Shown: positions 22,584 through 53,933, counted from the whole stretch's first letter. The stretch is 62,177 nt of DNA, filler included, from Pseudomonadota bacterium (GCA_043820105.1; 5 parts of 5 records of this genome joined end to end with filler, not necessarily neighbours in it), one strand, 5' to 3'. Translations and numbers: made by a program. The notes: generated by a model not told the origin, from the sequence alone.

Positions 22584-22600
22584 AGCAAAAATCGTGCTAA
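22584..22600 (-). promoter_or_regulatory. Candidate sigma54 promoter of the gsp operon
   Basis: TTAGCACGATTTTTGCT matches TGGCAC-N5-TTGC except GG>AG; IHF-like TAACATGCTGGAA at 22626-22638; palindrome TGACAAAATGTCA at 22698-22710. Confidence 0.55.
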
Positions 22601-22740
22601 GTTTATAATATTTTCAGTGCTTGCATAACATGCTGGAATTATTAAAATTAAGGCAAAAGGTAATTTTAATAATATAAGGAGTAATGATAGGTTTTTCTGA
22701 CAAAATGTCAATGTTAGTAATTTTATTTTAATTATGCTTG

Positions 22741-25700
22741 TCAATTTGTCAAGTAAGGCTTGATTTTATATTTTGCTAATTTTTTGTTTAAAGTATTCCT
22801 TGTTACGCCTAACATTTCAGCGGTTTTGGATTTATTTCCTTTAGTTTCCTTTATAGCGTTTATAATGGCGATTTTTTCTATTTCATCAAGGCGTTTGCTT
22901 TGGGTAATTTGTTCTATTGTTTCAAATTTTTTATTATACTCAATCAAAGATTCATCAATAATTTCATCATCTGAAAGAACTATTAATTTATTCACCTCAT
23001 TTTCTAATTCGCGAATATTTCCTGGCCAATCATAATTTGAAAAATATTTTAACAACTTTTTTGAAATCTTTTTTGGTTTTTCGCTTTTGTTTATAAAGTG
23101 ATCTACAAGCAATGGAATATCCTCTGTTCTTTCTCTTAATGGCGGTATATTTAATTCGATGGCATTAATTCTGAAATAAAAATCTTGTCTAAACGCTTCA
23201 TTTTTAACAAGTTGGGTCAGATTCCTGTGTGTAGCTGTAATGATTCGAACATCAATTTTTTGAGTTCTATCTGAACCAACTCTTCTTATTTCTTTTTCTT
23301 GTAAGACTCTTAAAAGCTTTTTTTGCATATTTAGTGACATTTCTCCAATTTCATCAAGAAAAAGTGTTCCTCCTTCTGCTTGTTCAAAGATGCCTTTTTT
23401 ATCTCTAATGGCGTCAGTGAAACTTCCTTTTACATATCCAAATAGCTCACTTTCTAAAATTGTTTCTGTAATTGCCCCACAGTTTTCAGCAAAAAACGGT
23501 TTATTTGCTCTAGTGCTTGCATTGTGAATTGCTTTAGCAATAAGCTCTTTTCCGGTTCCACTTTCTCCTGTTATTAGAATTGGGATATCACTATCAATAG
23601 TTTTTTCAATAGTGTCAAAAATAGAAAACATTTTTGGGCTTGTAGTGATAATTTTAGAAAAAACTCTTTTTGGATCTGTTATTTCTAAAGCCTCATTTTC
23701 TTCTTTTTCAAGAGGTTCAAAAGAAAGCTGTGCCTTGATTCCTTCTGGGGCATCTGAGGCTTTCAGCTCATTTGTCTTTGATTTGCCAATTATTGTAGCT
23801 GCAAGCCCTGCAAGAATGTTAATTTTATCTACATTCTTAGTTAGACTGATATCAATTTTTGGATTTTCAATATATAGAATGCCGATTATTTTTTGCTCAA
23901 AAACAATTGGGGTCGCCAAGAAATCTTGAATGTGCTTTATTGAGTCTATGGGATTTTGCTTTATGATTTCTAATATATCTTTTAAGCAAACAGTATTATC
24001 ATCCTGGCAAGCTTGATATATTATAGCTTCAATAAGTTTGGGTGATAATTCCCTTTCTGTTAACTTGTCTATACTTGACGAAACAGATTGCGAAAATCCC
24101 TTTGGGTTTATTAAAATTACGCTAGCATAGCTTCCTTTTCCAAATAAAAGAGCATTGCTTATTATTAGATTTAAGTTATTATCATCTGTTTGATTGGAAG
24201 ATATATTAGTTGTGATTCTCATTATTCTTGCAAGGACTTCACTTTCATCTAATTCTTCATCTGTTATTTTTACTTGATTCATGAAAGAAAAAGCATCTTG
24301 TAGGGTTGGTAAAATCATAAAAGGTAATTTTAATGTTGCTGGTATATATTTTTGAGTGCTTCTAATTTGGCTATTAATTTTTTCATAATAATATTTGTAT
24401 TTTTCTTTATTATTTTTCTTTAAATAATAATTGCCCAGTACTTCATAATATCGAAGTAATATTTGAAAATTCGTATCTTCTGCTTCGAGGTTTTCAATTC
24501 TATTGGCTATTTTTTCTGCACTATCTAAGTCATTGTGTTTAAGGGCTATTTTAAGGGCAATTGTGTTTGATTCAATAATAATTTTTCTGTCTTGATTTGA
24601 TACATTTCTTGCTTCTTCAAGGTAGTCTTCAATTTGATCGAGTGCACCTAGATTAATTTTACATGTCGCGATATTTAATATTGTTATACCAAGCTCAATG
24701 TTTCTACTAACTTTTTTTAATAGCTCACTAGCTTTTTCATAGGATTTAAGTGCATTAAGATAATCATTTTTAAATTGATAAATATCTCCCAGTAATGAGT
24801 AGCAGCTAGCGAGTAAGTGGAAGTTTTTTCTTTGCATTGCGAGGTTTTGTGCTTCTGATGCAAAAAAATGTGCATTTTCCATGTCACCTGTCTCTGAATA
24901 GATTAATCCCAGGTTAAAAAGGGAAATTTCAGCTCCTGAAGGAGACCCAAGATCTTGATAAATTGTGTTTGATTCCTTATATTTTTTTAAGGCATTTAGA
25001 TAGTTTCCCTGTCTTAAATAGCAATTGCCTATGTTTTGAAGCATCTGGGCTTTTCCAAAAATATCTGAAACTTCTTCTGCTTTTTTTAAGGCACTTTCAT
25101 GCCATTGTATAGCAGCTTCAAAATTTTCAAGCTGATAATATGCCAAACCAATATGGTTAAATGCTTTCATAAGGCCAGGCACATCATTGATTTTTTCTGC
25201 TAAATTAAGTGAAACAAGAAATTCATCCTTTGCCTTTTCATAATTTCCTGTATAGAATTCAACAAGACCATTTAAATTGTGAAGAATGCGTTTTTGTCCA
25301 GCACCAACGGCTTGGATTTTTTTTATTGAATCTATAAGCACTTTTGCTTCAGTATATTTTGTTACATTTATAAAGGAAGTTATTTTTAAAAACATAAGAT
25401 CTATTTTTGTTTCTAAATGATCTTCGTACTCTTCAATTTCTTTAATTGTCCTATCAATAAGTTCATTGCCCTCATTTATTTGACCCTTATTAATTTTGAT
25501 TTGGCAAAGATTCTTTTGAAGATTTATTCTCTCTAGGTCTGATTCAATATAATCATTAAGTAGCAGAAAGTTTTTTTCAGCTTTTATAAAGTCTCCAACT
25601 TTTAAATGGAAGTCACTTATTTTTAAGTAACAGTGTTTTTTGATTTTATTTCTTTCATCATAAGCAAGCGTATTAGAAGCCATTAAGATTGTTTCATATA

Positions 25701-27726
25701 AATTAACAGCTTTTTCCCAAAGCCCATTTTGAAAGTAAAAGTTTGCGACCTTGTTGTAGTATTCAATTGCTTTATCATTAATTCCTGCTTGAAGAAAGTG
25801 ATAAGCAATGTTTTCTTGATAGACATTTGAGTGAGTTGGATTTTCTTCAAGTTCCATTGCAAAATGTTTATGAATTTTTCTTGTTTGATTCTTGTCTAAA
25901 AATGTTTTTAAAGGTTCAAATATTTCCTTGTCTTCAATTATATATTCATCTTTTTTGTTTTCTTTAATTAAATTTAAGTCACCTAAGAGTTTAATTCCAT
26001 CAATAATTTCATTTTCATTTATTAGCGGATTATATCTTTTTAAAATGTTCAATATGAGCAGATTAGTTATACTAATATTTGAAGAAGCTATTATATAAAG
26101 GATGAGTCGTTGAATTTGATACAGGGTTTGAATTTTTGTTTTTTTGATTTCAATAAGGCTACTTGGCAGTTCATAATTTATTTTACTATTAAGGCAAATT
26201 GTTTTATTAATAACTTTAAGAATATTTTTGGCTTTTAAGTCTGCTATTAATGTTAATGCATATCCGGGATTACCTTTACTATAACGATTTAGAAACTGTA
26301 TTAACTCATTTGAAACCTTGTAGTTGCTTGCAGTGTCAATTATTTTGTTTTGAGTTTCAATATCTGTTCTTTTTAAATTAATATGTTGGCTTGTACCGCT
26401 TTGTGGAAACCGTTCTTTTATTAGTCTCTTAAATGAATTTATTTTTTCCTTATCTGTATTAAAGGTCAATAGCATGAACATCTTGTTTTCCAAGAGTTCA
26501 AGTTCTTTAAAATAGAGTTTTAAAAATAAATAAGAATCATGTTTAAGAAAATTACAGTTTTCTATAATTACTATTGAATCATTCTGTCTGTGTATTTTAT
26601 TTACATCTGCAACAAGCTTTTTTAAGAAAGCTGACCTTCTTGCATAGGATGAGTCTGTTATTAGGGAACTTTCTTTGTATGAGATTTTTTTATATGAAGA
26701 AATAAAGTTTATAATGTCGTCAATTGGCTCTGCTTCTGAGATTATAAGCCTGTAAACAGGGATCATGTCTTTAGAATTAAGTTTAACGAACTCATCAATC
26801 AGGGTTCTTTTTCCAATTCCAGTTTCACCATTAATAGAAAAAAGACATAGTTTTTTTTCAGAGTTTTTTTGCTGGATATAATTTGTTTGTAATTCATCAA
26901 TTTCTTCATCTCTTCCTGAAAAAGTTGGTTTTGTAAGGACTATTGTATCTTTTATATTATTTAAGGAAAATTTTTCCGCTTCTTTCAATTCCTTTTCAGC
27001 ATATTCTCTTTCAGTTAGTATCTTTAATTTTTCAGATCTTAATTTCAAAATAGAACTGCATTCTTCAGGAATGTATTTTTGAAAACTTTTAAAAATATAG
27101 TTAAAATGGGGTTTTGACAAATGTGTTTGTTTGCTTGTTTCGAAAAGGTAGCGTTTAGCATTTTCTTTTAGTTTGATAAGCTCACTTTCTATTCTTTTTT
27201 TCCAGCTGTTTGAAGCAATGACAAAATATTCAACGGATTTTTCAAGATTTATAGTTACTCTATTTTCTTCAACAGTAATATCTGCTTTTTTTAATTTTGA
27301 AATTTGTTCAATGGAAAGACCAAACAAGATAAATAATAGGAAAACTGATTTTCTGTTATCAGCAATATTTTCAATTTTATTTAAAAAGACACTTATATTG
27401 TCATCTGAAATTGATTCAATTTTATCAACCTTTTTAGTTTTTATCGCTTTAGCAAGATTTTTATAGTTATAAGTAGTTGATAAAAAATTATATAGGCTTT
27501 TTATAGATGAAATACATTGGTTTATTGTTCTTATTGAATAACCCGAATTTTTTATGTTATCTAAAATACTGTTTAAATCTTCGGCTGTTAGGTCTGCAAT
27601 TTCTTTGCTTGGATCCTTGTGCTCAAAGAATACTTCCAGTCTTTTTTTGTATTGCTCAATACTTTTAATGTTTATTTTTTTTGTTTCTAAGAGCCATTTA
27701 AAATATTCATCAAAAATAGGCTTCAT
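22741..27726 (-). CDS. Multidomain sigma54-dependent activator: inactive XerC/D-like domain + STAND NTPase + TPRs + GAF + sigma54 AAA+ + Fis HTH
   Basis: N-terminal integrase SAM-like and catalytic-like fold; FSGRDEE, GETGIGK and GNP STAND motifs; TPR repeats; GAF (TPIVFEQKIIGILYIEN); GESGTGKE, ESELFG-GSFTDA, LFLDEIGEM and WPGNIREL; C-terminal HTH. Confidence 0.88.
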   Translation of the reverse strand: MKPIFDEYFKWLLETKKINIKSIEQYKKRLEVFFEHKDPSKEIADLTAEDLNSILDNIKNSGYSIRTINQCISSIKSLYNFLSTTYNYKNLAKAIKTKKVDKIESISDDNISVFLNKIENIADNRKSVFLLFILFGLSIEQISKLKKADITVEENRVTINLEKSVEYFVIASNSWKKRIESELIKLKENAKRYLFETSKQTHLSKPHFNYIFKSFQKYIPEECSSILKLRSEKLKILTEREYAEKELKEAEKFSLNNIKDTIVLTKPTFSGRDEEIDELQTNYIQQKNSEKKLCLFSINGETGIGKRTLIDEFVKLNSKDMIPVYRLIISEAEPIDDIINFISSYKKISYKESSLITDSSYARRSAFLKKLVADVNKIHRQNDSIVIIENCNFLKHDSYLFLKLYFKELELLENKMFMLLTFNTDKEKINSFKRLIKERFPQSGTSQHINLKRTDIETQNKIIDTASNYKVSNELIQFLNRYSKGNPGYALTLIADLKAKNILKVINKTICLNSKINYELPSSLIEIKKTKIQTLYQIQRLILYIIASSNISITNLLILNILKRYNPLINENEIIDGIKLLGDLNLIKENKKDEYIIEDKEIFEPLKTFLDKNQTRKIHKHFAMELEENPTHSNVYQENIAYHFLQAGINDKAIEYYNKVANFYFQNGLWEKAVNLYETILMASNTLAYDERNKIKKHCYLKISDFHLKVGDFIKAEKNFLLLNDYIESDLERINLQKNLCQIKINKGQINEGNELIDRTIKEIEEYEDHLETKIDLMFLKITSFINVTKYTEAKVLIDSIKKIQAVGAGQKRILHNLNGLVEFYTGNYEKAKDEFLVSLNLAEKINDVPGLMKAFNHIGLAYYQLENFEAAIQWHESALKKAEEVSDIFGKAQMLQNIGNCYLRQGNYLNALKKYKESNTIYQDLGSPSGAEISLFNLGLIYSETGDMENAHFFASEAQNLAMQRKNFHLLASCYSLLGDIYQFKNDYLNALKSYEKASELLKKVSRNIELGITILNIATCKINLGALDQIEDYLEEARNVSNQDRKIIIESNTIALKIALKHNDLDSAEKIANRIENLEAEDTNFQILLRYYEVLGNYYLKKNNKEKYKYYYEKINSQIRSTQKYIPATLKLPFMILPTLQDAFSFMNQVKITDEELDESEVLARIMRITTNISSNQTDDNNLNLIISNALLFGKGSYASVILINPKGFSQSVSSSIDKLTERELSPKLIEAIIYQACQDDNTVCLKDILEIIKQNPIDSIKHIQDFLATPIVFEQKIIGILYIENPKIDISLTKNVDKINILAGLAATIIGKSKTNELKASDAPEGIKAQLSFEPLEKEENEALEITDPKRVFSKIITTSPKMFSIFDTIEKTIDSDIPILITGESGTGKELIAKAIHNASTRANKPFFAENCGAITETILESELFGYVKGSFTDAIRDKKGIFEQAEGGTLFLDEIGEMSLNMQKKLLRVLQEKEIRRVGSDRTQKIDVRIITATHRNLTQLVKNEAFRQDFYFRINAIELNIPPLRERTEDIPLLVDHFINKSEKPKKISKKLLKYFSNYDWPGNIRELENEVNKLIVLSDDEIIDESLIEYNKKFETIEQITQSKRLDEIEKIAIINAIKETKGNKSKTAEMLGVTRNTLNKKLAKYKIKPYLTN

Positions 27727-29505: not shown

Positions 29506-29521
29506 TGGCACACCAGTTGCA
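29506..29521 (+). promoter_or_regulatory. Sigma54 promoter
   Basis: TGGCAC-ACCAG-TTGCA is a perfect consensus match; IHF-like TAACATGCTGAAA at 29466-29478. Confidence 0.8.
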
Positions 29522-29532
29522 ATAGTAATATA

Positions 29533-29674
29533 TTAGAATTCATCGCGTGGCTTTAAAAAGCTATTATGAAACTTTTAACCTAATTTAATTAGGGGGCATA
29601 CGCGGTGGGTTTCATAGTGTCTGTACCCATATTTAAGGTTGATTGGAAGGCTAAGTTTAGCCTTCCTTTTTTTT
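29533..29674 (+). ncRNA. Candidate sigma54-dependent small RNA (~140 nt)
   Basis: Bounded by the sigma54 promoter and an intrinsic terminator; the only ATG-initiated ORF is 5 codons; several complementary segments. Confidence 0.55.
29645..29674 (+). terminator. Intrinsic terminator
   Basis: GGAAGGCTA-AGTT-TAGCCTTCC followed by T8. Confidence 0.9.
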
Positions 29675-29809: not shown

Positions 29810-29825
29810 CGGCACGAACCTTGCT
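29810..29825 (+). promoter_or_regulatory. Sigma54 promoter
   Basis: CGGCAC-GAACC-TTGCT, 40 nt upstream of the ATG at 29866. Confidence 0.75.
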
Positions 29826-29865: not shown

Positions 29866-31287
29866 ATGAAAAATACAAATCAAAAAGGGCAATTAATTAT
29901 TCAAATTAAATTCTTAGTTGCTTCAATAATTGTTCTTTATTTTTTAATCATAAAAACCATGTTTGCTTTTTTGCTTCCTGATATTGAAGAAAAAGAAGCT
30001 GTTGCTAATATCGCGATTATTTTGGATGTTGATTCAAGGCTTACTCACGCTGAGTTTTTTGAAGAGTTTTTGTTAAAGCTTGTTAATCAGGGTATTGAAG
30101 TTAATGTAGTTAGTAGAGAAGAAAAAGAAGCAGGCGAAAGTCCTATTAACAATGCTGATTATGCAAATTTAAAAGAACTTGAATCGGCGATTTTAGATGA
30201 TGATAAAACTTTGTTTTATGTTGGACTTGATTTGTCAGATGAATTTTCAGTTCTATATTATAAGACTTCATTTCTAGGAAAATTATTAAGTGAAAATATT
30301 TCCAGCTTTTCTGATGAGTGGCCACTTAGCTATAACACTAAAGACAAAAGAATAAGAAGCCTTTCTTCACCTGCCATTGTTGTTAATATTAATAATGCTT
30401 TAATCGTTGATAGTGACAATGAAAATTTAGCTAAAGGTGTTGCTTATCCAATTTATAATGGAATTTTGAAATATTTAAAATTTTTGGAAAATGATTACAA
30501 ATCAAATTTTCCACCTGTTGAAGATATTACTGAAATGAATTCTTCATTGCAAGCTGAAGCTCTTTCTAATCCGGAACAAAAATTTGAAACAGATCTTGTT
30601 TTTCAGCTTCCAACAATTAATGGAGAAACAAGCCAAATTCCACTTGTTTATTCAAATCTCTTAGTAGATCTTTACATAAAAAAATATAATTATACATATT
30701 ACTGTGACATTGAAAAATATCTTGAAGCAGGAAAGTTTGAAGCCTTTGCACCATGCAGACTTCCTATTTCAACTTTTCTATATAAAGTCTCAGGGAAAGA
30801 CGATGAAAGAATGCTTTCTGAATATGTGACAGCTGGTGAATTTGTAAGCACAGCAACAGAAAGGGTTGCCAAAAAAGAGGGCAGAGATGTTTTGATTTAT
30901 GCAACAGGTGGAGTTTTAAGACTTATTGATAACTTAAATCGCCTTGCTGAAAATTTTGGCTATCGCGCACCACGTATTACAAGCGGATTTAGAGATGCCG
31001 GTGGAAATAAAGCAGTTCCAGGAACAAGCTCAAAATCAGGCCACATGGAAGGAAGATGCGTTGATTTTTCATCTTCAAGTGGACTTTATGGACAAGTTGG
31101 AAAAGCCCGATTTATGAATCTCTGGTCTCAAGCAAGAAGCGTTTCAGGTCAAAACAAAAAAGATTATTCAATTTTAATTCATGATGCAGGAACTGGTATG
31201 CATGTTCATACTTGTTCAATTGCAACTCCTTCTTCAGATCCTGAAGCTTATTTTAATTCAGTGTTAAGTAGGGAACAGGGGGCGTAA
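29866..31287 (+). CDS. Exported protein with a degenerate Amidase_3-like domain and a C-terminal peptidase M15 (D-Ala-D-Ala carboxypeptidase-type) domain
   Basis: N-terminal hydrophobic helix; ITSGFR...SGHMEGRCVD...HVH M15 zinc motifs; RSLSSPAIVVN...LAKGVAYPIYNGILKYL resembles the end of an amidase_3 domain; GAAGGAG RBS. Confidence 0.7.
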   Translation: MKNTNQKGQLIIQIKFLVASIIVLYFLIIKTMFAFLLPDIEEKEAVANIAIILDVDSRLTHAEFFEEFLLKLVNQGIEVNVVSREEKEAGESPINNADYANLKELESAILDDDKTLFYVGLDLSDEFSVLYYKTSFLGKLLSENISSFSDEWPLSYNTKDKRIRSLSSPAIVVNINNALIVDSDNENLAKGVAYPIYNGILKYLKFLENDYKSNFPPVEDITEMNSSLQAEALSNPEQKFETDLVFQLPTINGETSQIPLVYSNLLVDLYIKKYNYTYYCDIEKYLEAGKFEAFAPCRLPISTFLYKVSGKDDERMLSEYVTAGEFVSTATERVAKKEGRDVLIYATGGVLRLIDNLNRLAENFGYRAPRITSGFRDAGGNKAVPGTSSKSGHMEGRCVDFSSSSGLYGQVGKARFMNLWSQARSVSGQNKKDYSILIHDAGTGMHVHTCSIATPSSDPEAYFNSVLSREQGA

Positions 31288-34259: not shown

Positions 34260-35507
34260 TTAGAATAAGCTCAGACAAATATGACCTTGTTCGGGAATGG
34301 ATCTAATTTGGACTGTTTCTATATTATCTTCAATAAGATTTTCTGCCAGAGTAAGCTCTGCCAAAAGGTGAATTTCTTCATTTGTTAGGTTTGGACAATT
34401 TGGATCTTTTAAAAATAAAATTACTTTTTCTTTTGCATCATCATTTATTTCAATCAAATGTTTGTTTTCAGTATTAAAAGCCAATAATGCTTTTACAATG
34501 TCTTCATTATCCACCTTATGAGAATAAGTTAAAATTATATTTAAATATTCTGCTTTTTCATTGTTATTATCTAATAATTCTATTTTGTGAAGAATTACTC
34601 TGACATATGACTTAATTTCTTCATTTGTAGTCCATGAAAAGCCAAACAAATCTTTGAAATCTTTTGGTGAAAGATCTAAATGGGTCATTTCATTTTCACT
34701 AAGGCCTTTTTTTCTAAGACCTTCTTGTTTTCTTTTTGTTTCTTGCTCTTTTCTGTGTGCCTGATCTTTTCTTTTGCTTTCACTTAATAACCTTCTTTCT
34801 AATTGGTCTAAGGCTTGAAACTCATAATCAAGTAACTCGTCTTGTGGAATATTTGATCCAAACATTCTAGAATAATTATTTGTTCTTTCGGCTTTATCTT
34901 TTATCAGCGCGATTTTATAGCAAACTGTTGCAAATTTAAGCCATGCCCTTTCAAGATTAAAGGCACGAATGTTATATTTTGAAGGACTTTTCCAGGCCTT
35001 TGCAGCCCATTTAAGTGCACTATATGAGCCCATTGTGGAACTTTCAATATTATCTACAATTATCTCAAACTCAAAAGTTGGGAAAAACACGTCATATTGA
35101 AATGCAATGACAAATGCATCAATCTGAGTAAATAAAATCATATCATTATGCAAAGCTAGTTTGTGAGTTGGATTTTTGAATGTTTCCTTCAACCTTTGAA
35201 TTGCACTTTCAGGAAGTTTCCATGCTCGTTTTGTGAACTCAAATGCAATTGAAATAAATGTTTCATTATAAACCCTTTCTCCATTCATTAACATCATCAT
35301 TAATATCTGAGACTTTTCTTTTTCATCTGATTCCAAGGCTAAATTTAAGAGCTTATCATTTACTAAAAGAATTTCCATTGGAGAATGCGCGTTTAATAGT
35401 TCTTGTTGATAAGAAACAAGCGTTTCTTGTGAGATTAGTGAAAAGGCAAATATGCTTATAAATTGAAGATTAAGTAATATGAATAAGAAAAGTGATTTTT
35501 GTTTCAT
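34260..35507 (-). CDS. Secreted orphan alpha-helical protein ending in CLSLF
   Basis: Signal peptide MKQKSLFLFILLNLQFISIFA; start moved to the ATG at 35507, downstream of the sigma54 site. Confidence 0.7.
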   Translation of the reverse strand: MKQKSLFLFILLNLQFISIFAFSLISQETLVSYQQELLNAHSPMEILLVNDKLLNLALESDEKEKSQILMMMLMNGERVYNETFISIAFEFTKRAWKLPESAIQRLKETFKNPTHKLALHNDMILFTQIDAFVIAFQYDVFFPTFEFEIIVDNIESSTMGSYSALKWAAKAWKSPSKYNIRAFNLERAWLKFATVCYKIALIKDKAERTNNYSRMFGSNIPQDELLDYEFQALDQLERRLLSESKRKDQAHRKEQETKRKQEGLRKKGLSENEMTHLDLSPKDFKDLFGFSWTTNEEIKSYVRVILHKIELLDNNNEKAEYLNIILTYSHKVDNEDIVKALLAFNTENKHLIEINDDAKEKVILFLKDPNCPNLTNEEIHLLAELTLAENLIEDNIETVQIRSIPEQGHICLSLF

Positions 35508-35546: not shown

Positions 35547-35562
35547 TGCAAATAATATACCA
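35547..35562 (-). promoter_or_regulatory. Sigma54 promoter with IHF site
   Basis: TGGTAT-ATTAT-TTGCA; TATCAACACCTTG at 35579-35591 matches the IHF consensus WATCAANNNNTTR. Confidence 0.75.
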
Positions 35563-35650
35563 CTTTATGTTCTAATAATATCAACACCTTGTGGCTTGTG
35601 ATTGTTTTGGTTTGCTCATTTATTGGACTAAAAGCTATTGTAAAATCAAT

Positions 35651-39296: not shown

Positions 39297-40352
39297 ATGC
39301 AAAGATCTAGATTAATCATCATTTCTTTCTTTATAATAATAATAATAATAAGCCAAATAGTTTTCGCACAGGTATTAGTAAGGCAAAGACCTGCGCTTGA
39401 AAGACAAAATAAAGAAAGAAGCGCCGAGCTTTTTGCAGCTTATGAAAGATATTATGAAGAGAGAATGCAAAGAACTGAAGCTCTAAAAAGAGAACTCCAA
39501 AGAAAAATAGAACAAAGAGAGGCAATTGATCCTGGACTTATGAGGGAAGTTCAAGAACTTAAACAAGAAGTATTGGAAGTTGAGGTTGAATATACAACAA
39601 TGTGTAGAGAAGCAAGAGAAATGGGGCTTTGGGATGAAGCTTTTAAGGAAAGAGTGCGAATTTATAAACGCGATGAAATGCAAAGGCAAGCTTCACCAGT
39701 TGAAAGACCAATGACACAAGAACAGGTTGAATCGCAAGAAAGAGCAGAAACAGCTAATAATCAAGCTCTTGTAATTATGAGAAGACAAATGACTGATGTA
39801 ACAAGTACTTGGAAATCACGCCTGCAAGATGTTTCGCCAGAAACCTGGGGACGATTTAATGAATACTTAAAAGGTGCTAACAGGGATCTGCTAATAAGAT
39901 TAGAAGAAGCAATAGATTATATTTCATCAAGAAGCAGTGAAGGTATTCGCAATGAAGTTCAAAGAGCCTTTGTTGAAGCTTGTGCAACCATGTTCACAAC
40001 AAATGGAAATGGAACACATCCATTGAACGTGGTGACTCATCTAAAACATCTTGATTTGGCAGGTCTATCAGAAGCGGTTAAAATAAGAAGACTTGGCAGA
40101 CTTTTTAGAGTTATAAAAAATGCCCATCTTCTTACCATGTCAGAAAGAGCAATTAATGAAAGCCTAACTTACGCTGAAAACTTTAAAGTAGAATTTAGAG
40201 TTTTGATGGAAGAATTAAAAGCTATTGCTTTAGAAGACAGGCTTTTAACAGAAGCTGAAAGAGAAACCTTAAGAGATGAAATTATTGAAAGAATTAGAAA
40301 AAGAGAAGAACGCCTTGAAATATGCGGCTTAAGTGCGGCAGCTCCAGTTTAA
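39297..40352 (+). CDS. Secreted orphan Glu/Arg-rich coiled-coil protein
   Basis: Signal peptide MQRSRLIIISFFIIIIIISQIVFA; AAGGA RBS; Cys near the C-terminus (LEICGLSAAAPV). Confidence 0.75.
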   Translation: MQRSRLIIISFFIIIIIISQIVFAQVLVRQRPALERQNKERSAELFAAYERYYEERMQRTEALKRELQRKIEQREAIDPGLMREVQELKQEVLEVEVEYTTMCREAREMGLWDEAFKERVRIYKRDEMQRQASPVERPMTQEQVESQERAETANNQALVIMRRQMTDVTSTWKSRLQDVSPETWGRFNEYLKGANRDLLIRLEEAIDYISSRSSEGIRNEVQRAFVEACATMFTTNGNGTHPLNVVTHLKHLDLAGLSEAVKIRRLGRLFRVIKNAHLLTMSERAINESLTYAENFKVEFRVLMEELKAIALEDRLLTEAERETLRDEIIERIRKREERLEICGLSAAAPV

Positions 40353-40461: not shown

Positions 40462-40477
40462 TGGCACAATACTTGCT
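40462..40477 (+). promoter_or_regulatory. Sigma54 promoter
   Basis: TGGCAC-AATAC-TTGCT is a perfect consensus match; IHF-like TAACAAAATGAAAT about 45 nt upstream. Confidence 0.82.
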
Positions 40478-43556: not shown

Positions 43557-43569
43557 AAAGGATAATTTA

Positions 43570-46359
43570 ATGCTTAAAAGGACGTTGAAAATTATTTTAA
43601 TACTTACGATGGTGACTAATTTAGCATTTCCTAATGCTATTTTTGCTGTTCAAAATATTCCAGATGATCAAATCATAAGAAAAGCAGGATATGAAAATGT
43701 TAATGGTTCTGTTTTAGGGCTGGCGACTTTTGATTCCAGGGCTGCCTGGTTAAGTATAGCAGAAGAAATTGAAGAGCTAACAAAGCTTTACCTTTTTCCT
43801 TTAGAAGATAATACCAGAAACTATGATTTTGGTTTAAGTCACATTGCCAGGAATCAATCCGCAAGCGGTATTGAAAAAGCCTATGTTGAAAAGGACAAGG
43901 GTTTGGATGCCTATATCCTTTTGCATGTTATAACAAGGAAAACTCCCCCTGCTTATACAAAAACAAAAGCAGGGCAAGATATTTGGAATGGATGCATATA
44001 CCGGGATGAAAATGGTGCAATTGATCTTAGAGATGGCTTAAAAGACACCTTTATGCATAGATTTGATCCTAAACATGAAATTTTTAACTATGATATTTCG
44101 AGCTATAGTGATGATTATAAATCTGAACTAGCTAAAACCGCTGAATATTTCAACGAGGTTTTTAGAAATGGATTTATGTTTTTCGGTGAAGAAAATTCAT
44201 ACGAAGCAGCTCAAAAAATACCACCTGGTTTAGCTGAAGTTAAAATTGAAAAACAAAGATTTAGTATTAATTTAAATATAAAAGAATTTTCAAAATTATT
44301 TTATGGAAGAACAATATTTGATATACCTATTTGTTTTGGGCAAGATGAAAATTCTATCTTGGCGGAAATTCAAGAACTTAAAATGATTATGATAGAAAAT
44401 GGACTCATGCGAGGCGAGCTACCACAAAACTTATCAGGGCATGATACAGGAATATTGTCAGCTTATGGAAAGACCTCGGAAAAGGTAAAAAGTATTTTGG
44501 CAAATAGCTATGGGAAAAATGAAAAGCTTAGAGAATTTTATTTTCTTGGAGCGGCCCTGGGTTCATTAATGCTGGGAGTTGTGAAACCAGACAGGATCAT
44601 GGCTGTTGGCTCCTGGATCGGGGACAATTCTTTAGCACCAGCGTCTTTTTTTGTTGAAAAATTAACAAAGACTGGTGAAACTGCTTTTGTAATGCAAAAA
44701 GCCGGTGTTGCGTCAAGAGCATTTAGGTTCGCGGGTGGCCTTACTTTACATCTTGCAATTATAGCCTTATTTTTGATTCAATCAGGTATTGTTATTTATG
44801 ATGCTTCAAAGCTTACAAGCGGTGAACTCAATCCAAATGAAAATGATTATTTTAAATCTGCAATAACGTTTGACACAATGAGGGCTGCAGCTATTGCAAT
44901 TATGACTGCTGGAGCCTTAGCAAACCCTGTTGTTCTTGGTTTTTTGGGTTTATATGGGATGCTTGAATATTATGATTACTATGCAATAAGCAATGGTGAC
45001 ATCGGATTAAAGCAAATCTTTGCAAATTATTATAGATATTACTCAAGACCAGATGGAGCCTTACATTCTTATGAAGGCAATAGATATGCCCGGTATGCAA
45101 GGAGCAAGGCAGGCCTTGAAAGATTTTTAACAACTTCTGATGGCACAGATTATAGTGAATTTATAACAGTAGAAAGGCTTGAAGACGAACAAGAGCGCTT
45201 TGCTGGGATAATGAAGCTTGTTAAAGATGGTATGAACAATATAAATGATTCATTTGAAGTGGCTAAAGTCATAAAACAAATAAAAATAGTTTTGGAAAAT
45301 GACGAGGATCCAATAGTTCTTCCTGAGCGATATGAAAATCCCCAAAGAAATATTAAAAAGCTTTTAGAATATTTAGAAAGGTCTTATTCATACTATCAAG
45401 GCTATTTAGAAAATGCCTATTATTATAAGCTTAGCTTTTTGCAAGAGTGGTTGGCCTTTGCAGGAGATCATACAATTATGGGTACTCCAGGAGCTATTGC
45501 TCCAATAAAGGCTTTAGGAGAGTCAGCAAGATGGTTTATGATGGAAAATATTCCAAATTATTTTAATTATTGGGTCGATTACTTTAGCCAACCATTTAGA
45601 CTCGGTGATTATAAGTTAGAGTTAACAAAAGAAGCCTTCTGGCATGACTTTAAAGAGCTTTCCTGGAATTCCTGGACAGGGTATGTGCCAAGGCTGGCTC
45701 TGATTGCACCTGCGGCGTCTTGGTTTGGTTTAAGGTCAATGGGGATGGATAAAGTAACAGGCTTAGATGATTTGTTTGATTTAGAAGAATTTAATAATAA
45801 TGTATTTGAGACAATGAAACCACTAGGCATTGATATTGATATGCAAGGCTTTAAATCTCAAGATATGGCCGAACGATATGCTGCCTTTGATTTTCATTTC
45901 AATACTTTATACTTGCATGAAGATTTTAAATATAGAGCAAAAGAGTCCTATGTAAAGGTTGATGAATTTGATAATATTATTGTTAATGAAGAAGAGGGTC
46001 GCAAAAAAACGATTAATGTTGATTATGAGTGCAGTGCTACAATCAGTGAAGATGAATATAGAAGAAAAATTAATCTCGTTGGTTATTATAAAAAGCTTTA
46101 TGAACAAGTTAATCAGCAAAGTACAATTTATAATAAGCTATTAGGAGATGATCCTGTTGGAGATGAAATTGATACAATTGTTGATAATTTAGGCAGACAA
46201 TATACAAATCTTTTAGGTAAGCTGGCTTATGAAGCAGAGACTCTTTCAAGATACGATTATAGATCTGATATTTTTCAAACCTTAATTCTAGTTTCAAAAA
46301 TGGCCGAGGAGTGGAAAAAGTCGTCTATAGAAGATCAAGAGGAGAGTATAGTTGAATAA
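43570..46359 (+). CDS. Large secreted orphan protein with central hydrophobic helices
   Basis: AAGGA RBS, signal peptide MLKRTLKIILILTMVTNLAFPNAIFA; three Gly/Ala-rich hydrophobic segments. Confidence 0.75.
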   Translation: MLKRTLKIILILTMVTNLAFPNAIFAVQNIPDDQIIRKAGYENVNGSVLGLATFDSRAAWLSIAEEIEELTKLYLFPLEDNTRNYDFGLSHIARNQSASGIEKAYVEKDKGLDAYILLHVITRKTPPAYTKTKAGQDIWNGCIYRDENGAIDLRDGLKDTFMHRFDPKHEIFNYDISSYSDDYKSELAKTAEYFNEVFRNGFMFFGEENSYEAAQKIPPGLAEVKIEKQRFSINLNIKEFSKLFYGRTIFDIPICFGQDENSILAEIQELKMIMIENGLMRGELPQNLSGHDTGILSAYGKTSEKVKSILANSYGKNEKLREFYFLGAALGSLMLGVVKPDRIMAVGSWIGDNSLAPASFFVEKLTKTGETAFVMQKAGVASRAFRFAGGLTLHLAIIALFLIQSGIVIYDASKLTSGELNPNENDYFKSAITFDTMRAAAIAIMTAGALANPVVLGFLGLYGMLEYYDYYAISNGDIGLKQIFANYYRYYSRPDGALHSYEGNRYARYARSKAGLERFLTTSDGTDYSEFITVERLEDEQERFAGIMKLVKDGMNNINDSFEVAKVIKQIKIVLENDEDPIVLPERYENPQRNIKKLLEYLERSYSYYQGYLENAYYYKLSFLQEWLAFAGDHTIMGTPGAIAPIKALGESARWFMMENIPNYFNYWVDYFSQPFRLGDYKLELTKEAFWHDFKELSWNSWTGYVPRLALIAPAASWFGLRSMGMDKVTGLDDLFDLEEFNNNVFETMKPLGIDIDMQGFKSQDMAERYAAFDFHFNTLYLHEDFKYRAKESYVKVDEFDNIIVNEEEGRKKTINVDYECSATISEDEYRRKINLVGYYKKLYEQVNQQSTIYNKLLGDDPVGDEIDTIVDNLGRQYTNLLGKLAYEAETLSRYDYRSDIFQTLILVSKMAEEWKKSSIEDQEESIVE

Positions 46360-46780
46360 AAATATAAAGAACATTTTAATATTTTTATTAATGCTGAGTT
46401 GTTCTTTGTATGCACAATCTTTTCCTATTCCCTTTGGAGATAGAAGCAATGATGCTCCAAAGTATGAAGAAGAAGAGCCAGATGCATATGTCAGCTTTTT
46501 GCTAAAAATTCATGAAGATCTTTCCTATAAAGATCCTTTAGATTTTCACGGAATCTGCGAGCTAAAGGAAGCATATAGAAGCGAGCTTTCAAAGCTTTAT
46601 AATAAATGTGTTGATTATGCTGAGGATCATGGCATTTCCTATACAGAGAGAATGGATTATCATCTGGATTTTGAAGCCGAAATGTATGGAGCAATTTGGG
46701 AAGAGATAATGGCTGATAATGTTTTGAGTTATGAAAATTATGGACAAGAATGTTTTGGGCCTTTTTGTCCTAATAATTAA
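46352..46780 (+). CDS. Small secreted acidic Cys-containing orphan protein
   Basis: GAGGAG RBS, TTG start overlapping the upstream stop, signal peptide, four Cys in the mature part. Confidence 0.7.
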   Translation: MNKNIKNILIFLLMLSCSLYAQSFPIPFGDRSNDAPKYEEEEPDAYVSFLLKIHEDLSYKDPLDFHGICELKEAYRSELSKLYNKCVDYAEDHGISYTERMDYHLDFEAEMYGAIWEEIMADNVLSYENYGQECFGPFCPNN

Positions 46781-46917: not shown

Positions 46918-46933
46918 TGGCATGAACTTTGCA
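46918..46933 (+). promoter_or_regulatory. Sigma54 promoter
   Basis: TGGCAT-GAACT-TTGCA, about 50 nt upstream of the ORF. Confidence 0.78.
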
Positions 46934-46980: not shown

Positions 46981-49900
46981 ATGGATTTTATGAAACGGAA
47001 AAATTATAGAAATCGACAAATTTTCCTTAATATATTCTTAAATTTAATTCTTTTAATATTTCTATCTAGTTTTGCTAATTCTACTGTTTTAGATGTTTCA
47101 AAATTAGTTTCATTTGTCGATGGCCAAGCAATTGGGTCTATGTATCCTGATCAGGGGATAAAATCTTCATATTTGAATTTCCCAATATCAGGTCCCGATT
47201 CAGTAGTAGAACTACGAGTATATTTGGATTCAGAAGCCCAAAACAACCCGGAATTTATTTATTTAGAAACTTCAACAAATGAGGAATCAGAATTATTAAA
47301 AAGTACTCTGGAAAAATTATTCATCTCTAGCAATGCAGCACAGCTTAGTGAAGCCTATACTGCATTAATTAATATTTTTAGTGGAAGATTCCCCAAAATA
47401 CGCTTAAAGTCATCTGCGGTTAGGATTTCAGAAAATGGAGAAAGATATTATTCTATAATAATTAGTCCACGGTTTAATCAATTTGCTGAATCATCAATTG
47501 TTGATAGCAATGGCGGTCTTGTTACTCTTAGACAACCCAAAAGTTGGCACGGAGAAAATAGAACTTTAACAAATTTTACTTTAAAGTTTTTTGATACAAG
47601 CATGACAAAAGGTGTCGGTGTAATGGGCTTTCCAGTTGCCTATTCAAGGCCAGTTCAAGATATTAAAGATGCAACACCGCTTTACGACTTTGATGAAATA
47701 ACAATGAACAGGTTATATTTGGGGCAAATGTCTTATGAAGACGCGATACCTGTATTAAAAAAAATAATTGATGCTAGTATTGCGTCATTATCATGGACAG
47801 GCAATCTTTTAGAACAAAGAGGTCTTGATGCAAGTGTTGAAAACCTTGGTTTATTAATTAGTGAATATGAAGCAGGTTTAATTGAATTAAGTGAGTTTCC
47901 AAGGTCCTTGCAACCATTTGTAGAAAATCTTGGATTCGAAAGGTTTTTTAATTTACTAAATGATATTGATATGGATACTTTAACAGAAGATAGAGCATAT
48001 GATTACTTGAGAATAGCCTATGGAGATCCCTTGCAACCCGAGGAGCTTAGCTTTGAAGAAACTCAAAGAACAAGATATGTTTTTAGTCCTAAACAGGAAG
48101 CTTTATATATTCCCACCTTTGAAGAAATGGCGGAAATGATTGTCGCTGAAAAAGCAAGACTTGGATATGATACTGTTTGGTTAGCTCCTGTGCGAGACTA
48201 TGGGGTAGATTCTGGTTTTACAACAGCTCCCGGAATATTTAAATTAAAAGATGCTGAAGGAAGGCAAAGGGAGGTTTTATGGGGGCCATATAATACTACT
48301 TTCCCAGCTCTTATTATGCGTTATAATTCATCGTCAAATTCAGCTAGTTATTTATTGGGCGGGGATAGTTCTTTGCAAGCTTTGTTTGCTCGCTTTTATG
48401 CAGAGGGAATGACAACTGTTCTTGATTCACCGCATTTGCACCATTCAAGTGCTTCAATGGGTTATGATCTAACTGGATCAGAGCAGTTTTATCGCCTTGT
48501 TGATATTGTTTTAGCTTCACTTGGGTATAGGCGAACTGCACCTCATCCTTTAAATCTTCAAAACAGCTCGTTGATTGAAGTTAGTTCAGGCAGAGAAGTT
48601 TCCTCGTATGAAGTATTTTATGCTAAAAAACCAACTATAGACTCATCCGGAATAATTCAGGAATATTTTCCAGGTAAAGATGCAAGACCCCAAAATCCTG
48701 GAGAAATTGGAAACCATCCGTTTACTGAGGCCAAGCCTGGAAATAGTGAGGCCATGCTTTGGAGAAATATCACAGCACCAGACACAAGAAGGCAGGCGGT
48801 GCAGCTTTTATATACCTTGGCTGAAATTGATTTTTTGAAAAGGATGACTCAAGGGAATATAGATCAGCGTTTAATTATAAGAATGGACGTTGATTTTGCA
48901 AGACTTGATCACGCAAGGCCCCAAGACAGACCATTTGCAAGAAATCTATTTAATAGTTTGATGGCGATGTTTCCCAAATTAATACCTGCAGCTGAACTTG
49001 TTGGAATGCATTCTCCTGATGAAGTAAGAGAGTATGCGCGTGATACTGTTTTGGTTCAACCCAATCCAATGAACCCAATGTTAACAGGAAGATTTGGAGA
49101 AGCTTTTGATGAACGTGGAGTTTTATCGCAACCTGAACGCATAGCTGAAATGGTTCAAGCCGGCGTTGCTTTGTCTTATGGAGAATATCTTAGACAAGCA
49201 GGAACACCTGTTTTAGTTTTTGATCCAAGTGGCAAGTCAAACCCAATGTTTGTTTCTCATTTCTTGCATGACAATTGTACTTCAATGCCAAGCCAGCTTG
49301 GCAGAAACTCTTTACAAGTAGATCGCTATGGTCATAGGACAGTAACATTTGAACATCCCAATCAAGTTCTTGGTACATGGCTTTATTATGCCTTTGGAGG
49401 CAATGGTATTGCTATGATTTTTGATGGACAATTAATTGCTTCACCTAATGATCCTGATTGGACTATTTCCAATGAATCCGGGCAGTATGAAATGCCACGA
49501 TATGAAAGATATGTTGATCCAATGTCTTATATACCTGGGGACGCTAGTGAGGAAGAAAAGGTTGAATTGCGAAAGCAAGTTGCCCAAAATGCATTATTAT
49601 TTAATCACAGCGCTGTTCAGCTAATTAGCTTTTTGCAGGCAACTAAAAATTATCAAGTTTTCCAAATCAAAAGCTTAAATTCTGAAGGTACTTTAATTGG
49701 CAAAGTTATTTTAGTCCCAGGCAAAGGTTATGCTATACATTTATTGAACTTGGGCCCATATACTTATCCCGTTGAGCTTAATTTAGAATCAAACAGCCAT
49801 TTAGGAGCTTTTGAAAGAACTTCTTTGCAACGATATTATGAGGAATTTGGAACAAAGCTAGCCAGAGTAAAAATCACTGAAGGTGAAAAAGCTAAAGCAA

Positions 49901-50079
49901 GATATTTTGAAAGAGATTCAGATAGAATTTTAAGAGTTGAAACCCTTGAGCCTTTTGAAACGGTTATATTATTTTCAGAAGGACTATTACAAGATTTTAA
50001 GCGAAACACAGGTTATCAGGAACCAAGTAGTGAGCTAGCTGGGTTTTTAGCATGTGCTGGTTTGTTTGGAGGACTTTAG
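46981..50079 (+). CDS. Secreted, divergent GH13 alpha-amylase-family protein ending in CAGLFGGL
   Basis: Signal peptide; LGYDTVWLAP, GMTTVLDSPHLH, IRMDV (nucleophile Asp), AAEL (acid/base Glu), HFLHDN (Asp) and GIAMIFDGQ in GH13 order. Confidence 0.65.
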   Translation: MDFMKRKNYRNRQIFLNIFLNLILLIFLSSFANSTVLDVSKLVSFVDGQAIGSMYPDQGIKSSYLNFPISGPDSVVELRVYLDSEAQNNPEFIYLETSTNEESELLKSTLEKLFISSNAAQLSEAYTALINIFSGRFPKIRLKSSAVRISENGERYYSIIISPRFNQFAESSIVDSNGGLVTLRQPKSWHGENRTLTNFTLKFFDTSMTKGVGVMGFPVAYSRPVQDIKDATPLYDFDEITMNRLYLGQMSYEDAIPVLKKIIDASIASLSWTGNLLEQRGLDASVENLGLLISEYEAGLIELSEFPRSLQPFVENLGFERFFNLLNDIDMDTLTEDRAYDYLRIAYGDPLQPEELSFEETQRTRYVFSPKQEALYIPTFEEMAEMIVAEKARLGYDTVWLAPVRDYGVDSGFTTAPGIFKLKDAEGRQREVLWGPYNTTFPALIMRYNSSSNSASYLLGGDSSLQALFARFYAEGMTTVLDSPHLHHSSASMGYDLTGSEQFYRLVDIVLASLGYRRTAPHPLNLQNSSLIEVSSGREVSSYEVFYAKKPTIDSSGIIQEYFPGKDARPQNPGEIGNHPFTEAKPGNSEAMLWRNITAPDTRRQAVQLLYTLAEIDFLKRMTQGNIDQRLIIRMDVDFARLDHARPQDRPFARNLFNSLMAMFPKLIPAAELVGMHSPDEVREYARDTVLVQPNPMNPMLTGRFGEAFDERGVLSQPERIAEMVQAGVALSYGEYLRQAGTPVLVFDPSGKSNPMFVSHFLHDNCTSMPSQLGRNSLQVDRYGHRTVTFEHPNQVLGTWLYYAFGGNGIAMIFDGQLIASPNDPDWTISNESGQYEMPRYERYVDPMSYIPGDASEEEKVELRKQVAQNALLFNHSAVQLISFLQATKNYQVFQIKSLNSEGTLIGKVILVPGKGYAIHLLNLGPYTYPVELNLESNSHLGAFERTSLQRYYEEFGTKLARVKITEGEKAKARYFERDSDRILRVETLEPFETVILFSEGLLQDFKRNTGYQEPSSELAGFLACAGLFGGL

Positions 50080-52478: not shown

Positions 52479-53528
52479 ATGTACTCTTTAAAAGCTAATT
52501 ATTTGAAATTAATACAGTTTGATCAAAATCAGGCTTCAACTTTAAAAAGAATTGGAGAATATAAGGGAAAGCAGGATCTTTTTACGAGACAAACTCCAGA
52601 AATATTAGAATCACTAAAGAAAGTAGCTATTATTGAATCCTCTGAATCTTCTAATAGATTAGAGGGTATAACAGCCGAACATAAAAGAATTAAAGACATG
52701 GTTCTAAAGTCTACTGAACCAAAGAATAGATCAGAGCAGGAAATCGCTGGGTACAGAGATTCTTTAAATCTTATTCATGAATCAGCAAAGCATATGGATT
52801 TTTCAGTAAATGTTATTATGCAAATTCATTCCATGATTTACAGATATTTGCCTCAAGATGGTGGTAGATATAAAATGACTGATAATGAAATTGTTGAAAA
52901 AAATCCTGATGGAAGCATCATGAGAGTTCGATTTAAAGCAGTATCTGCCGTAAAGACTCCCTTTGCCATGGAGCAAATGGCAATAGGTTATAAGCAATCT
53001 ATTTATTCAGAAAATTTGGAACCGCTTTTAATTATACCACTTACAATTTTAGATTTTTTGTGCATACATCCTTTCTCTGATGGAAATGGGAGAGTAGCAA
53101 GGTTGCTAACCTTAATGCTTCTATATCATTTTGACTATGAAGTGGGTAGATATATAAGCTTAGAGCGAATATTTGAAGAATCAAAAGAAACTTATTATGA
53201 AAGCCTGGAGGCGTCCTCTCAGAAATGGCATCAAGGCAAGCACAGCCCCAATCCATGGCTTAATTATTTTTGGGGAGCTATGCTAAAGGCCTATAAAGAA
53301 TTTGAAGAAAGAGTCGGAACAATTAGAAAAAGCAAGGGCTCAAAAACTGATCAAATAATTGAAGCTGTAAAAAGAAAAATAGGCCCCTTTTCAATTTCTG
53401 ATATTGAAAGGGAACTGCCAACCATATCAAGAGATATGATAAGAATTGTACTTCGCAAACTTCGTGATGAAAAAACAATCATTCCACAAGGAAAAGGTCG
53501 CGCAGCCAAATGGATTAATAAAGCTTAA
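52479..53528 (+). CDS. Fic-family AMPylase (class II, N-terminal inhibitory helix) with C-terminal winged HTH
   Basis: Canonical HPFSDGNGRVAR motif; SNRLEG matches the (S/T)xxxE(G/N) inhibitory motif. Confidence 0.92.
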   Translation: MYSLKANYLKLIQFDQNQASTLKRIGEYKGKQDLFTRQTPEILESLKKVAIIESSESSNRLEGITAEHKRIKDMVLKSTEPKNRSEQEIAGYRDSLNLIHESAKHMDFSVNVIMQIHSMIYRYLPQDGGRYKMTDNEIVEKNPDGSIMRVRFKAVSAVKTPFAMEQMAIGYKQSIYSENLEPLLIIPLTILDFLCIHPFSDGNGRVARLLTLMLLYHFDYEVGRYISLERIFEESKETYYESLEASSQKWHQGKHSPNPWLNYFWGAMLKAYKEFEERVGTIRKSKGSKTDQIIEAVKRKIGPFSISDIERELPTISRDMIRIVLRKLRDEKTIIPQGKGRAAKWINKA

Positions 53529-53917
53529 CCAGCCCAAGGCCTGGCCCTTTATTTCTTAATACTTGCAAAGGAAAATACTTGCAAAGGAAAATAAGTACAC
53601 GGAGGTGTGATTAATAATTAAGCATGGCGAATGATATCACTTAGATATTAAACGGTTTTATGATTTTATTTCTTTCTTTTTTTCTTTCTTTTTTTCATCC
53701 GTCTTGATTTATTTTGATTTATTCTTAAAAATAAATATGAAATTTTTTTACCTTATCCCGATGGCTCCCATATATCTTTTTAAAAATAATCTCTATTTTG
53801 GGAATAAATTGTGTCATTTTTGACAAACAATATTTGTTCAATTTGTCTAATTATTATGAATACTTATAAGATCTTAATGTTATTCGAATTTTATCACGAT
53901 AATTTCAAGCTAGTTTT

Positions 53918-53933
53918 TGGCATAGAAATTGTA
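53918..53933 (+). promoter_or_regulatory. Candidate sigma54 promoter
   Basis: TGGCAT-AGAAA-TTGTA (C>T at -12); IHF-like ATTTCAAGCTAGTT just upstream; TGTCA-N4-TGACA at 53812-53825. Confidence 0.55.

Follow-up and report, generated by a model that had tools for sequence, protein, structure and literature searches.

Predicted sigma-54 promoters form a large genome-wide set biased to exported, mostly family-less proteins in a groundwater bacterial genome bin

Without its activator, a sigma-54 promoter stays silent. Francke et al. (2011, BMC Genomics; PMC3162934) used comparative genomics to propose that sigma-54 is linked to the cell exterior; they located such promoters through motif, orientation and distance and associated them with genes that serve pili, lipoproteins, peptidoglycan and surface structures. 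A 2025 survey (PMC12316311) reported secretion-system COGs as enriched among predicted sigma-54 targets in several classes, with up to 69 enhancer-binding proteins (EBPs) per genome. The sigma-54 regulome of Desulfovibrio vulgaris Hildenborough comprises 36 regulons with 201 genes along with 4 RNAs that are non-coding (Kazakov et al. 2015, PMC4641369), and in Chlamydia trachomatis the sigma-54 regulon has been linked to secreted effectors and to proteins of the membrane (Soules et al. 2020, PMC7482065); all four papers are represented here by excerpts. We analyzed a stretch of 62,177 bases (the window), which consists of five contigs of one 3.81-Mb, 32%-GC genome bin (GCA_043820105.1) joined by N spacers. 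A sequence-only reading of the window had proposed that eight -24/-12 motifs unite a type II secretion system (T2SS) and a series of orphan secreted proteins in one sigma-54 regulon. Our results make it likely that the seven good sites among them are ordinary members of a very large genome-wide sigma-54 set biased to exported, mostly family-less proteins, which would be an extreme case of the known theme of sigma-54 controlling the cell exterior.

As in PMC3162934, motif, orientation and distance served to identify the promoters described here, and an association with surface structures is shared. They differ from the conserved biosynthetic and transport functions in the excerpt of that paper in that the export signals lie on mostly family-less proteins and the sites precede about 18% of unit-heading genes. 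The arrangement resembles that of D. vulgaris (PMC4641369) in apparently having many activators, each with a small regulon, and in including extracellular functions and small RNAs; unlike in the excerpted regulome, we find about 310 units with about 412 open reading frames (ORFs) in 3.8 Mb, mostly monocistronic exported orphans, and the regulons here are predicted from their promoters. An association of sigma-54 with membrane and secreted proteins is shared with C. trachomatis (PMC7482065), whose few activators, type III route and developmental switch, as excerpted, contrast with about 31 activators and Sec signals here. The differences from known systems are the promoter density (about one per 12 kb), the single-gene units for family-less exported proteins and the giant-activator family. 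Keyword literature searches returned no paper on sigma-54 control of a mostly family-less exported set at such a scale and none on STAND- or kinase-fused sigma-54 activators, which is not proof of absence.

The loose pattern TGGC-N8-TGC occurred in the window at chance frequency (4 matches versus 4.2 expected), and the specific consensus was therefore tested across the whole genome. TGGYAY-N5-TTGC has 223 genomic copies, 175 of them intergenic, whereas the same words spaced by N4 or N6 occur 17 and 30 times, respectively, and the pattern read backwards 4 times. Intergenic segments contain 169 strict matches; across 50 dinucleotide-preserving shuffles of them, the mean was 2.3 and no shuffle exceeded 6. 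The motif is far above background, and equality with background had been one of the refuting outcomes named by the sequence-only reading. A scoring matrix of 22 columns was derived from the sites of this genome, with leave-one-out counting in the core. By this matrix, 245 intergenic sites reached at least 16 bits (7.7 expected from the density inside ORFs) and 308 reached at least 14 bits (25 expected). The excess extends through the 14-16-bit band (63 intergenic versus about 17 expected) and ends at 12-14 bits, where 44 sites versus about 47 expected represent background. The next gene is co-oriented for 275 of these 308 and opposed for 30, and the remaining 3 point at a contig end; the median distance from core to ORF start is 52 nt. 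Two core variants were enriched in intergenic sequence, C at the first position (CGG; 8 versus about 1 expected) and T at the last position (TTGT; 26 versus about 4.5), and A for the first G of GG was not (3 versus about 2.9).

The genome encodes one copy of rpoN, as the regulon proposal required, with activator-interacting (AID), core-binding (CBD) and DNA-binding (DBD) domains, and contains 33 matches to the sigma-54 activator domain PF00158, about 31 of them strong. The rpoN gene (C8:2203-3624, minus strand; L084:301-1722) has its own upstream sigma-54 site of at least 16 bits, which suggests possible autoregulation.

From these statistics we infer that the sites fire and that the genome has about 280-310 predicted sigma-54 promoters, which amounts to roughly one in every 12 kb, and that these precede about 18% of unit-heading genes. 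Of the approximately 310 target units, 246 are single-gene, and all units together account for about 412 of 3,170 ORFs. It is very improbable that the motif is a dispersed repeat or is bound by some DNA-binding protein other than sigma-54. A fixed-position box beside part of the sites (described below) would be expected of a repeat, but the sites follow the canonical GG-N10-GC consensus with strict spacing, point in one orientation towards genes at leader-length distance, and occur in a genome with rpoN and about 31 activators; moreover, they are not copies of one element, because the sequence between box and core is not conserved.

To characterize the genes behind these predicted promoters, a target was defined as the first co-oriented ORF within -120 to +300 nt of a site, and control first genes as ORFs heading a unit (upstream gap of at least 80 nt) without a sigma-54 site. 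Signal-peptide-like starts were present in 164 of 236 targets of sites of at least 16 bits (69%), compared with 757 of 2,934 other ORFs and with 393 of 1,431 control first genes (27%; odds ratio 6.0, p = 1.5e-34 for the latter). Targets of sites of at least 14 bits make up 211 of the 921 signal-flagged ORFs (23%). In a target-rich sample, 53 of 83 targets (64%) had no Pfam family at E<=1e-4; among unit-heading controls taken from these regions the figure was 37 of 121 (31%; odds ratio 4.0, p = 3.6e-6), and many of the family-less controls were very short ORFs. The proposal that sigma-54 sites precede exported orphans therefore holds as a genome-wide association (odds ratio about 6), and its tie to the T2SS or to one activator is not supported.

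The targets are not one expanded family. Where families were recognized, they were mostly extracellular or surface ones (FG-GAP, TSP3, TrAA12-like, RTX, Big_5, pilin N_methyl and SLT), and a lipobox-like motif occurs in 58 of 310 targets. PilR-type, sigma-54-dependent pilin promoters occur in Pseudomonas, Myxococcus and Geobacter; similarly, 10 of 28 pilin-like N_methyl paralogues here are sigma-54 targets, in a family that is far larger. One of these 28 paralogues (38-78% identical) is encoded in the window at 38258-38782 (minus strand), where the contig end cuts the upstream region after 97 nt.

It is quite possible, if somewhat doubtful, that the targets, instead of being released effectors, belong mainly to the envelope, the periplasm or the cell surface (as pili, adhesins and wall-remodelling enzymes) and that sigma-54 remodels the surface, a role put forward for bacteria generally. 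The FG-GAP, TSP3, Big_5, RTX, N_methyl and SLT proteins, an M15-like peptidase and the lipobox-like motifs all fit such a role, which also agrees with the excerpted proposal of Francke et al. (PMC3162934). However, most targets have no family from which a location could be read, and among the window targets there appears to be one GH13-like enzyme that is secreted. A surface role overlaps our preferred explanation, a large sigma-54 set biased to exported and mostly family-less proteins, more than it excludes it; where the individual proteins end up is likewise something that we infer.

Several points weigh against this preferred explanation. Signal peptides were called by our own heuristic, which marks 29% of all ORFs (probably an overcount) and overlooked the 963-aa target in the window. 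ORFs were called by our own greedy rule, leaving 11% of the genome intergenic. The 83 targets scanned with Pfam were drawn from the 236 by way of 20 regions (each at most 20 kb) chosen greedily for target richness. Some targets are cytoplasmic (Usp, ferritin, desulfoferrodoxin, a GNAT protein, rpoN and one activator), and the window contains genes with signal peptides and no sigma-54 site, e.g. at 27993 and 33053. No RNA runs sharing words with 38980-48900 were found; only four groundwater DNA runs did so, with at most 0.20 of the words. Finally, the abundance of sites is relative: because the comparison genomes were not chosen for sigma-54 richness, "unusually many" holds relative to them alone and no record is claimed. 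The 30 genomes compared include two others of the same order (G001 and G002) and one more of the same class (G003), and no row is labelled as the same phylum. In favour of the explanation, the two of the same order, and no others, are similarly rich in the motif, with 102 matches (2.2 Mb) and 69 matches (1.7 Mb) versus 4-43 in 27 unrelated genomes, and in G001, 4 of 12 sampled sites precede clear signal peptides.

Within this genome the window is not special and samples the sigma-54 set at ordinary density, with 7 sites seen versus 5.0 expected from 310 targets in 3.81 Mb (P = 0.24); contig C54, which is included whole, has 2 assigned targets versus 2.5 expected. The eight motifs proposed earlier were all recovered on three contigs (C54, C55 and C57), with the cores at 22585 and 35548 one base off the previous numbering (Table 1). 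Closeness between contigs in the window is meaningless because they are merely joined by N spacers. Judged by the site excess per score band, six sites are strong, the 35548 site is marginal and the gspC site is not above chance, so that seven of the eight (14.6-22.3 bits) stand as predicted promoters and the gspC site (13.2 bits) belongs to the background. The GG and GC doublets are ten bases apart at 29506, 29810, 35548, 39180, 40462 and 46918, and the 53918 site has GT at -12. As had been noted before, no site of at least 14 bits precedes pdxA, namZ, the AAA gene or fic.

Table 1. Features of the 62,177-base window, in window coordinates.
Feature	Position	Strand	Remarks
C53	1-8015
C54	8116-38879		complete contig
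C55	38980-50457
C57	50558-54953
C58	55054-62177
T2SS gene cluster	9101..22583	-	Pfam T2SSC, Secretin, T2SSE, T2SSF, T2SSG, N_methyl, T2SSJ, T2SSK_1st, PilM_2/T2SSL
PilM/GspL-like	10572-12173	-	two small ORFs downstream in cluster
gspK-like	12174-13433	-
three N_methyl pseudopilins	13523-15530	-
gspG	15561-16010	-
gspF	16112-17341	-
gspE (ATPase)	17341-19167	-
gspD (secretin)	19168-21651	-
gspC	21657-22583	-
claimed gspC sigma-54 site TAGCAC-N5-TTGC	22585..22599	-	13.2 bits; rejected
sigma-70-type candidate TTGACA-16-TATCAT	22711-22684	-	11/12 consensus matches
sigma-70-type candidate TTGACA-16-TAAAAT	22752-22725	-	11/12 consensus matches
1661-aa enhancer-binding protein	22741..27726	-	integrase-SAM-like N-terminus, AAA_16 (STAND), TPR, Sigma54_activat, HTH_8
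predicted sigma-54 promoter TGGCAC-N5-TTGC	29506..29520	+	20.3 bits; no ORF downstream
predicted intrinsic terminator	29645..29674	+	9-pair stem then T8; would end a ~140-nt transcript from 29506
predicted sigma-54 promoter CGGCAC-N5-TTGC	29810..29824	+	19.4 bits; CGG variant enriched
473-aa target	29866..31287	+	N-terminal hydrophobic anchor, weak Peptidase_M15_3 match
415-aa target	34260..35507	-	predicted signal peptide, no Pfam family at E<=1
marginal sigma-54 promoter TGGTAT-N5-TTGC	35548..35562	-	14.6 bits
IHF consensus match TATCAACACCTTG	35579..35591	+	17-29 nt upstream of the 35548 promoter
tandem 21-nt repeat GGACCAnTTTnnCGTCCGATT x2	39070..39114	+	candidate enhancer of the 39180 promoter; hand-counted coordinates
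predicted sigma-54 promoter TGGTAT-N5-TTGC	39180..39194	+	16.3 bits
351-aa target	39297..40352	+	predicted signal peptide, no family
predicted sigma-54 promoter TGGCAC-N5-TTGC	40462..40476	+	22.3 bits, best of window; leader ~175 nt
operon of 963-aa, ~930-961-aa and 142-aa proteins	40665..46780	+	none with a Pfam family above threshold
predicted sigma-54 promoter TGGCAT-N5-TTGC	46918..46932	+	19.0 bits
1029-aa target	46990..50079	+	predicted signal peptide, GH13-like candidate
predicted sigma-54 promoter with TTGT at -12	53918..53932	+	17.2 bits; TTGT variant enriched
227-aa target	53972..54655	+	predicted signal peptide, no family

The description of the downstream genes as exported orphans was largely borne out. 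All six protein-coding ones start, from the first in-frame ATG, with charged and then hydrophobic residues, and most lack a family; the 473-aa protein, with its weak M15 match, looks more like a signal anchor. Pfam returned no significant family for the 415-, 351-, 963-, 227-, 961- and 142-aa proteins; four of these six have no match at E<=1, and the 351- and 142-aa proteins have sub-threshold matches only (best E 0.0072). Searches of the three class-level relatives (G001-G003) yielded no counterpart of the 963-, 351- or 473-aa protein, and the ESM Atlas gave no usable match for the 351-aa protein. The 29506 promoter, downstream of which no ORF of at least 60 aa starts within about 200 nt, is predicted to serve a terminator-bounded small RNA; in an Rfam search of 29300-29900 no family reached threshold (best E 0.089).

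A paralogous 963-/961-aa pair is encoded on contig C104 (23103-30033; L082:8687 onward), with 27% and 36% identity over parts. Because this pair sits about 30 nt after the gene of a 306-aa sigma-54 target, the three-gene layout of C55 appears to be duplicated and again sigma-54-driven. Short repeats also occur around the window promoters. The heptamer GTGGTAA is repeated three times at 40540-40560 (plus strand) in the leader of the 40462 transcript, and TTCAAAA three to four times at about 35673-35697 (minus strand) upstream of the 35548 promoter, beside a repeated AAAGTGAGCATAAA. The word GAGCATAT lies in the leaders of all three C55 promoters (39230-39237, 40520-40527 and 46946-46953; offsets from core start +50, +58 and +28); it has 25 intergenic copies genome-wide, and few other sigma-54 leaders carry one. 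GAGCATA at +50 to +59 was found at just 5 of 360 promoters genome-wide.

The T2SS is a recognizable one, with gspC, D, E, F, G, minor pseudopilins, K and L/M identified by Pfam in a single cluster. The sigma-54 site proposed for gspC was rejected: its score falls in the band where intergenic density equals ORF-interior density, it breaks the invariant GG (AG at -24), and its TTGC abuts the ATG of the longest gspC frame, so that a transcript start about 12 nt downstream would fall inside that frame. No site of at least 12 bits was found upstream of gspC in relatives (five loci, comprising the G001 and G002 orthologues, paralogues and a class-level relative), and no properly oriented site of at least 14 bits lies inside the T2SS cluster. 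The gspC orthologues of G001 and G002 (42-43% identity) have TTGCAy-N17-TATAAT upstream in common. In the window, the 157-nt spacer before gspC holds both sigma-70-type candidates of Table 1, although the region total (5 versus 2.9 in shuffles) is not significant. The proposed link between the sigma-54 regulon and the T2SS is thus not upheld, and the T2SS operon next to the 1661-aa activator would most likely be read from sigma-70-type promoters.

We consider it improbable that the 1661-aa activator switches on a single secreted arsenal together with the neighbouring T2SS and that this T2SS then exports it. The idea has points in its favour: gspC directly follows the activator gene in the same orientation, two good sites are 1.8-2.1 kb from the activator start, only signal-bearing proteins can be T2SS substrates, and a stand-alone secretin paralogue on contig C41 has a 19.9-bit site. 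It is opposed by the background score, broken GG and abutted ATG of the gspC site, by the orthologues with a conserved sigma-70-like motif in place of a sigma-54 site, by contigs that are not linked and by a site density equal to the genome average. The C41 secretin (7563-9746, minus strand), 35% identical to the window GspD and with its site at 9794-9808, 48 nt upstream, is the sole secretion-machine gene seen with a good sigma-54 site.

The activators bear on the same question. The 1661-aa protein has the domains of an EBP (PF00158, 237 bits; C-terminal HTH_8, 53 bits; Walker A GESGTGK), and its loop reads GSFTDA in place of the canonical GAFTGA, with F and T kept. It is one of nine giant paralogues of 1119-1986 aa (the others on C27, C90, where there are two, C10, C88, C49, C64 and C108), seven of which have the loop G(A/S)(F/Y)TDA; the small activators, where the loop pattern was found, have mostly GAFTGA or GSFTGA and in one case GSFTSA. 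One long paralogue that was scanned contains integrase-SAM-like, Ser/Thr kinase, STAND, TPR and GAF domains, and the 1661-aa copy is without the kinase and GAF domains in Pfam. The giant fusion is absent from G001 and G002, which have 9-16 activator matches. As a class, giant activators have more targets within 8 kb than expected (22 versus 10.3), which speaks for the single-activator idea; small activators have 39 versus 26. However, the 1661-aa activator has 2 versus 1.3 expected.

An upstream activator site common to the members, as a single regulon would have, was not found among the seven window promoters: no informative 8-mer is common to three or more of their upstream regions. When 8-mer sharing was compared among the neighbours of six giant activators, nothing emerged for the window and just the C88 pair shared a long stretch. 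The identical TAACATGCTG at 22626 and 29466 is indeed present, but in opposite orientation relative to the promoters and at chance frequency (9 genomic copies versus about 7.7 expected by a hand estimate from base composition), and none of its other copies lies beside another assigned sigma-54 site. A single co-induced set is therefore not supported, since there is no common enhancer word and TAACATGCTG is at chance. With about 31 activators competing, the suggestion that the 1661-aa protein drives the set is not supported, and several activators acting separately would be the simpler reading.

Individual promoters have their own candidate activator sites. Besides the tandem repeat before the 39180 promoter (Table 1), TGTCA-N5-TGACA before the 53918 promoter and GGACAA-N17-TTGTCC before the 46918 promoter were read by eye as candidates. 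The IHF box pointed out at 35579-35591 is a true WATCAA-N4-TTR match. Among 312 promoters, the IHF consensus occurs 11 times in the -40 to -21 bin and 5 times in the -60 to -41 bin (1.5 expected in each), and the genome has five HU/IHF-family (Bac_DNA_binding) genes, one of which passes the NCBI cut-off for IHF alpha. Putative IHF boxes upstream of sigma-54 promoters thus have some support.

A further box, TTTAACATAAAA, stands at a fixed place and in one orientation beside promoters outside the window, e.g. at C1:95949 (minus), C90:29315 (plus) and C15:13915 (minus). Counted as TTAACATAAA, it has 84 genomic copies, 35 of which are followed by a sigma-54 core 68-72 nt later, and in the generalized form TTTRAHHWAAR it occupies -74 to -64 in 57 of 312 promoters versus 2.1 expected. 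Targets bear signals in 82% of cases with the box versus 65% without it, and GACA/TGTC words lie about 45 nt further upstream of the box. The 40462 promoter has a near-match only. The box is possibly the site of a bending protein or the mark of one large sub-regulon.

Taken as a mechanism, each promoter would probably be switched on by one of about 31 EBPs answering different signals. The set appears biased to Sec-exported proteins, that is, surface, periplasmic, pilin-like and probably secreted ones, most of them family-less and most transcribed alone. In this way, much of the organism's exported, lineage-specific proteome would be governed tightly by sigma-54, with activators as the gate; with hundreds of exported orphans behind sigma-54, a fine-grained, signal-specific change of surface and secretome may therefore be expected. 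More tentatively, the lineage-specific exported proteome might be gated chiefly by sigma-54 and not by the housekeeping sigma factor, with about 300 promoters each staying silent until one of about 31 sensors fires and hundreds of orphans being deployed one at a time to distinct cues such as prey, host or substrate. The sensors of such a gate would include the nine 1100-2000-aa kinase/STAND/TPR/GAF activators with a GAFTDA loop, and about a fifth of its promoters have the fixed-phase A-rich box 57 nt upstream.

If these predictions hold, this genome (3.8 Mb, one rpoN) would be a compact system for asking why the cell exterior so frequently comes under sigma-54 and what giant kinase/STAND activators sense. 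It would also offer a regulatory handle on a large family-less protein set, as the proteins could be grouped by enhancer. The same density calls for caution, because in this genome chance will place a sigma-54 site about every 12 kb, whichever gene cluster is near.

The 1029-aa target is probably a very divergent, putative alpha-amylase-superfamily (GH13-like) enzyme. Pfam gave no family at E<=1, hence no PF00128 match, and no sequence in the PDB matched below E 0.85. A first homologous-protein search found just the protein itself, and the exhaustive HMMER search, which covered 1.84 billion representatives, brought up five relatives. G001 has a homologue with 33% identity, which begins 48 nt from the end of its contig, too near for a promoter to be read. 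Three observations point to the GH13-like assignment. In ESM features, the ten best family-bearing clusters all share the alpha-amylase family or clan. A medium-confidence model predicted from 6 sequences (pLDDT 60, pTM 0.54) gave Foldseek matches of which the top 50 were all GH13 (best E 4.7e-8), although at TM scores of 0.14-0.35. Lastly, RMD, AELVG and LHDN of the protein align with RxDAxH, GE and HD/YD of its relatives, Asp, Glu and His-Asp columns which we take to be GH13 regions II, III and IV.

The lineage is almost unsampled and comes from groundwater. A GspE search returned 44 loci, among which identity reached no more than 63% (in a partial match) and 57% for full-length ones, under mixed labels (Nitrospirota, Myxococcota, Pseudomonadota, "STL-UBA1", Pseudobdellovibrionaceae and others). 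At the start of C57 (50558-51789), two ORFs are 94-97% identical to genes on contig C2, reflecting either recent duplication or assembly redundancy. On C58 (55281-59330), a SEFIR/TIR-domain protein is encoded beside Rad52-like, PD-(D/E)XK nuclease and ArdC-N-like genes; this stretch, with its defence-type gene, appears to be mobile or to derive from a phage. Elsewhere in the genome, contig C1 (L069:4270-7060) encodes topoisomerase VI subunits B and A, and together with many radical-SAM, rubrerythrin and desulfoferrodoxin genes these suggest an anaerobic lifestyle.

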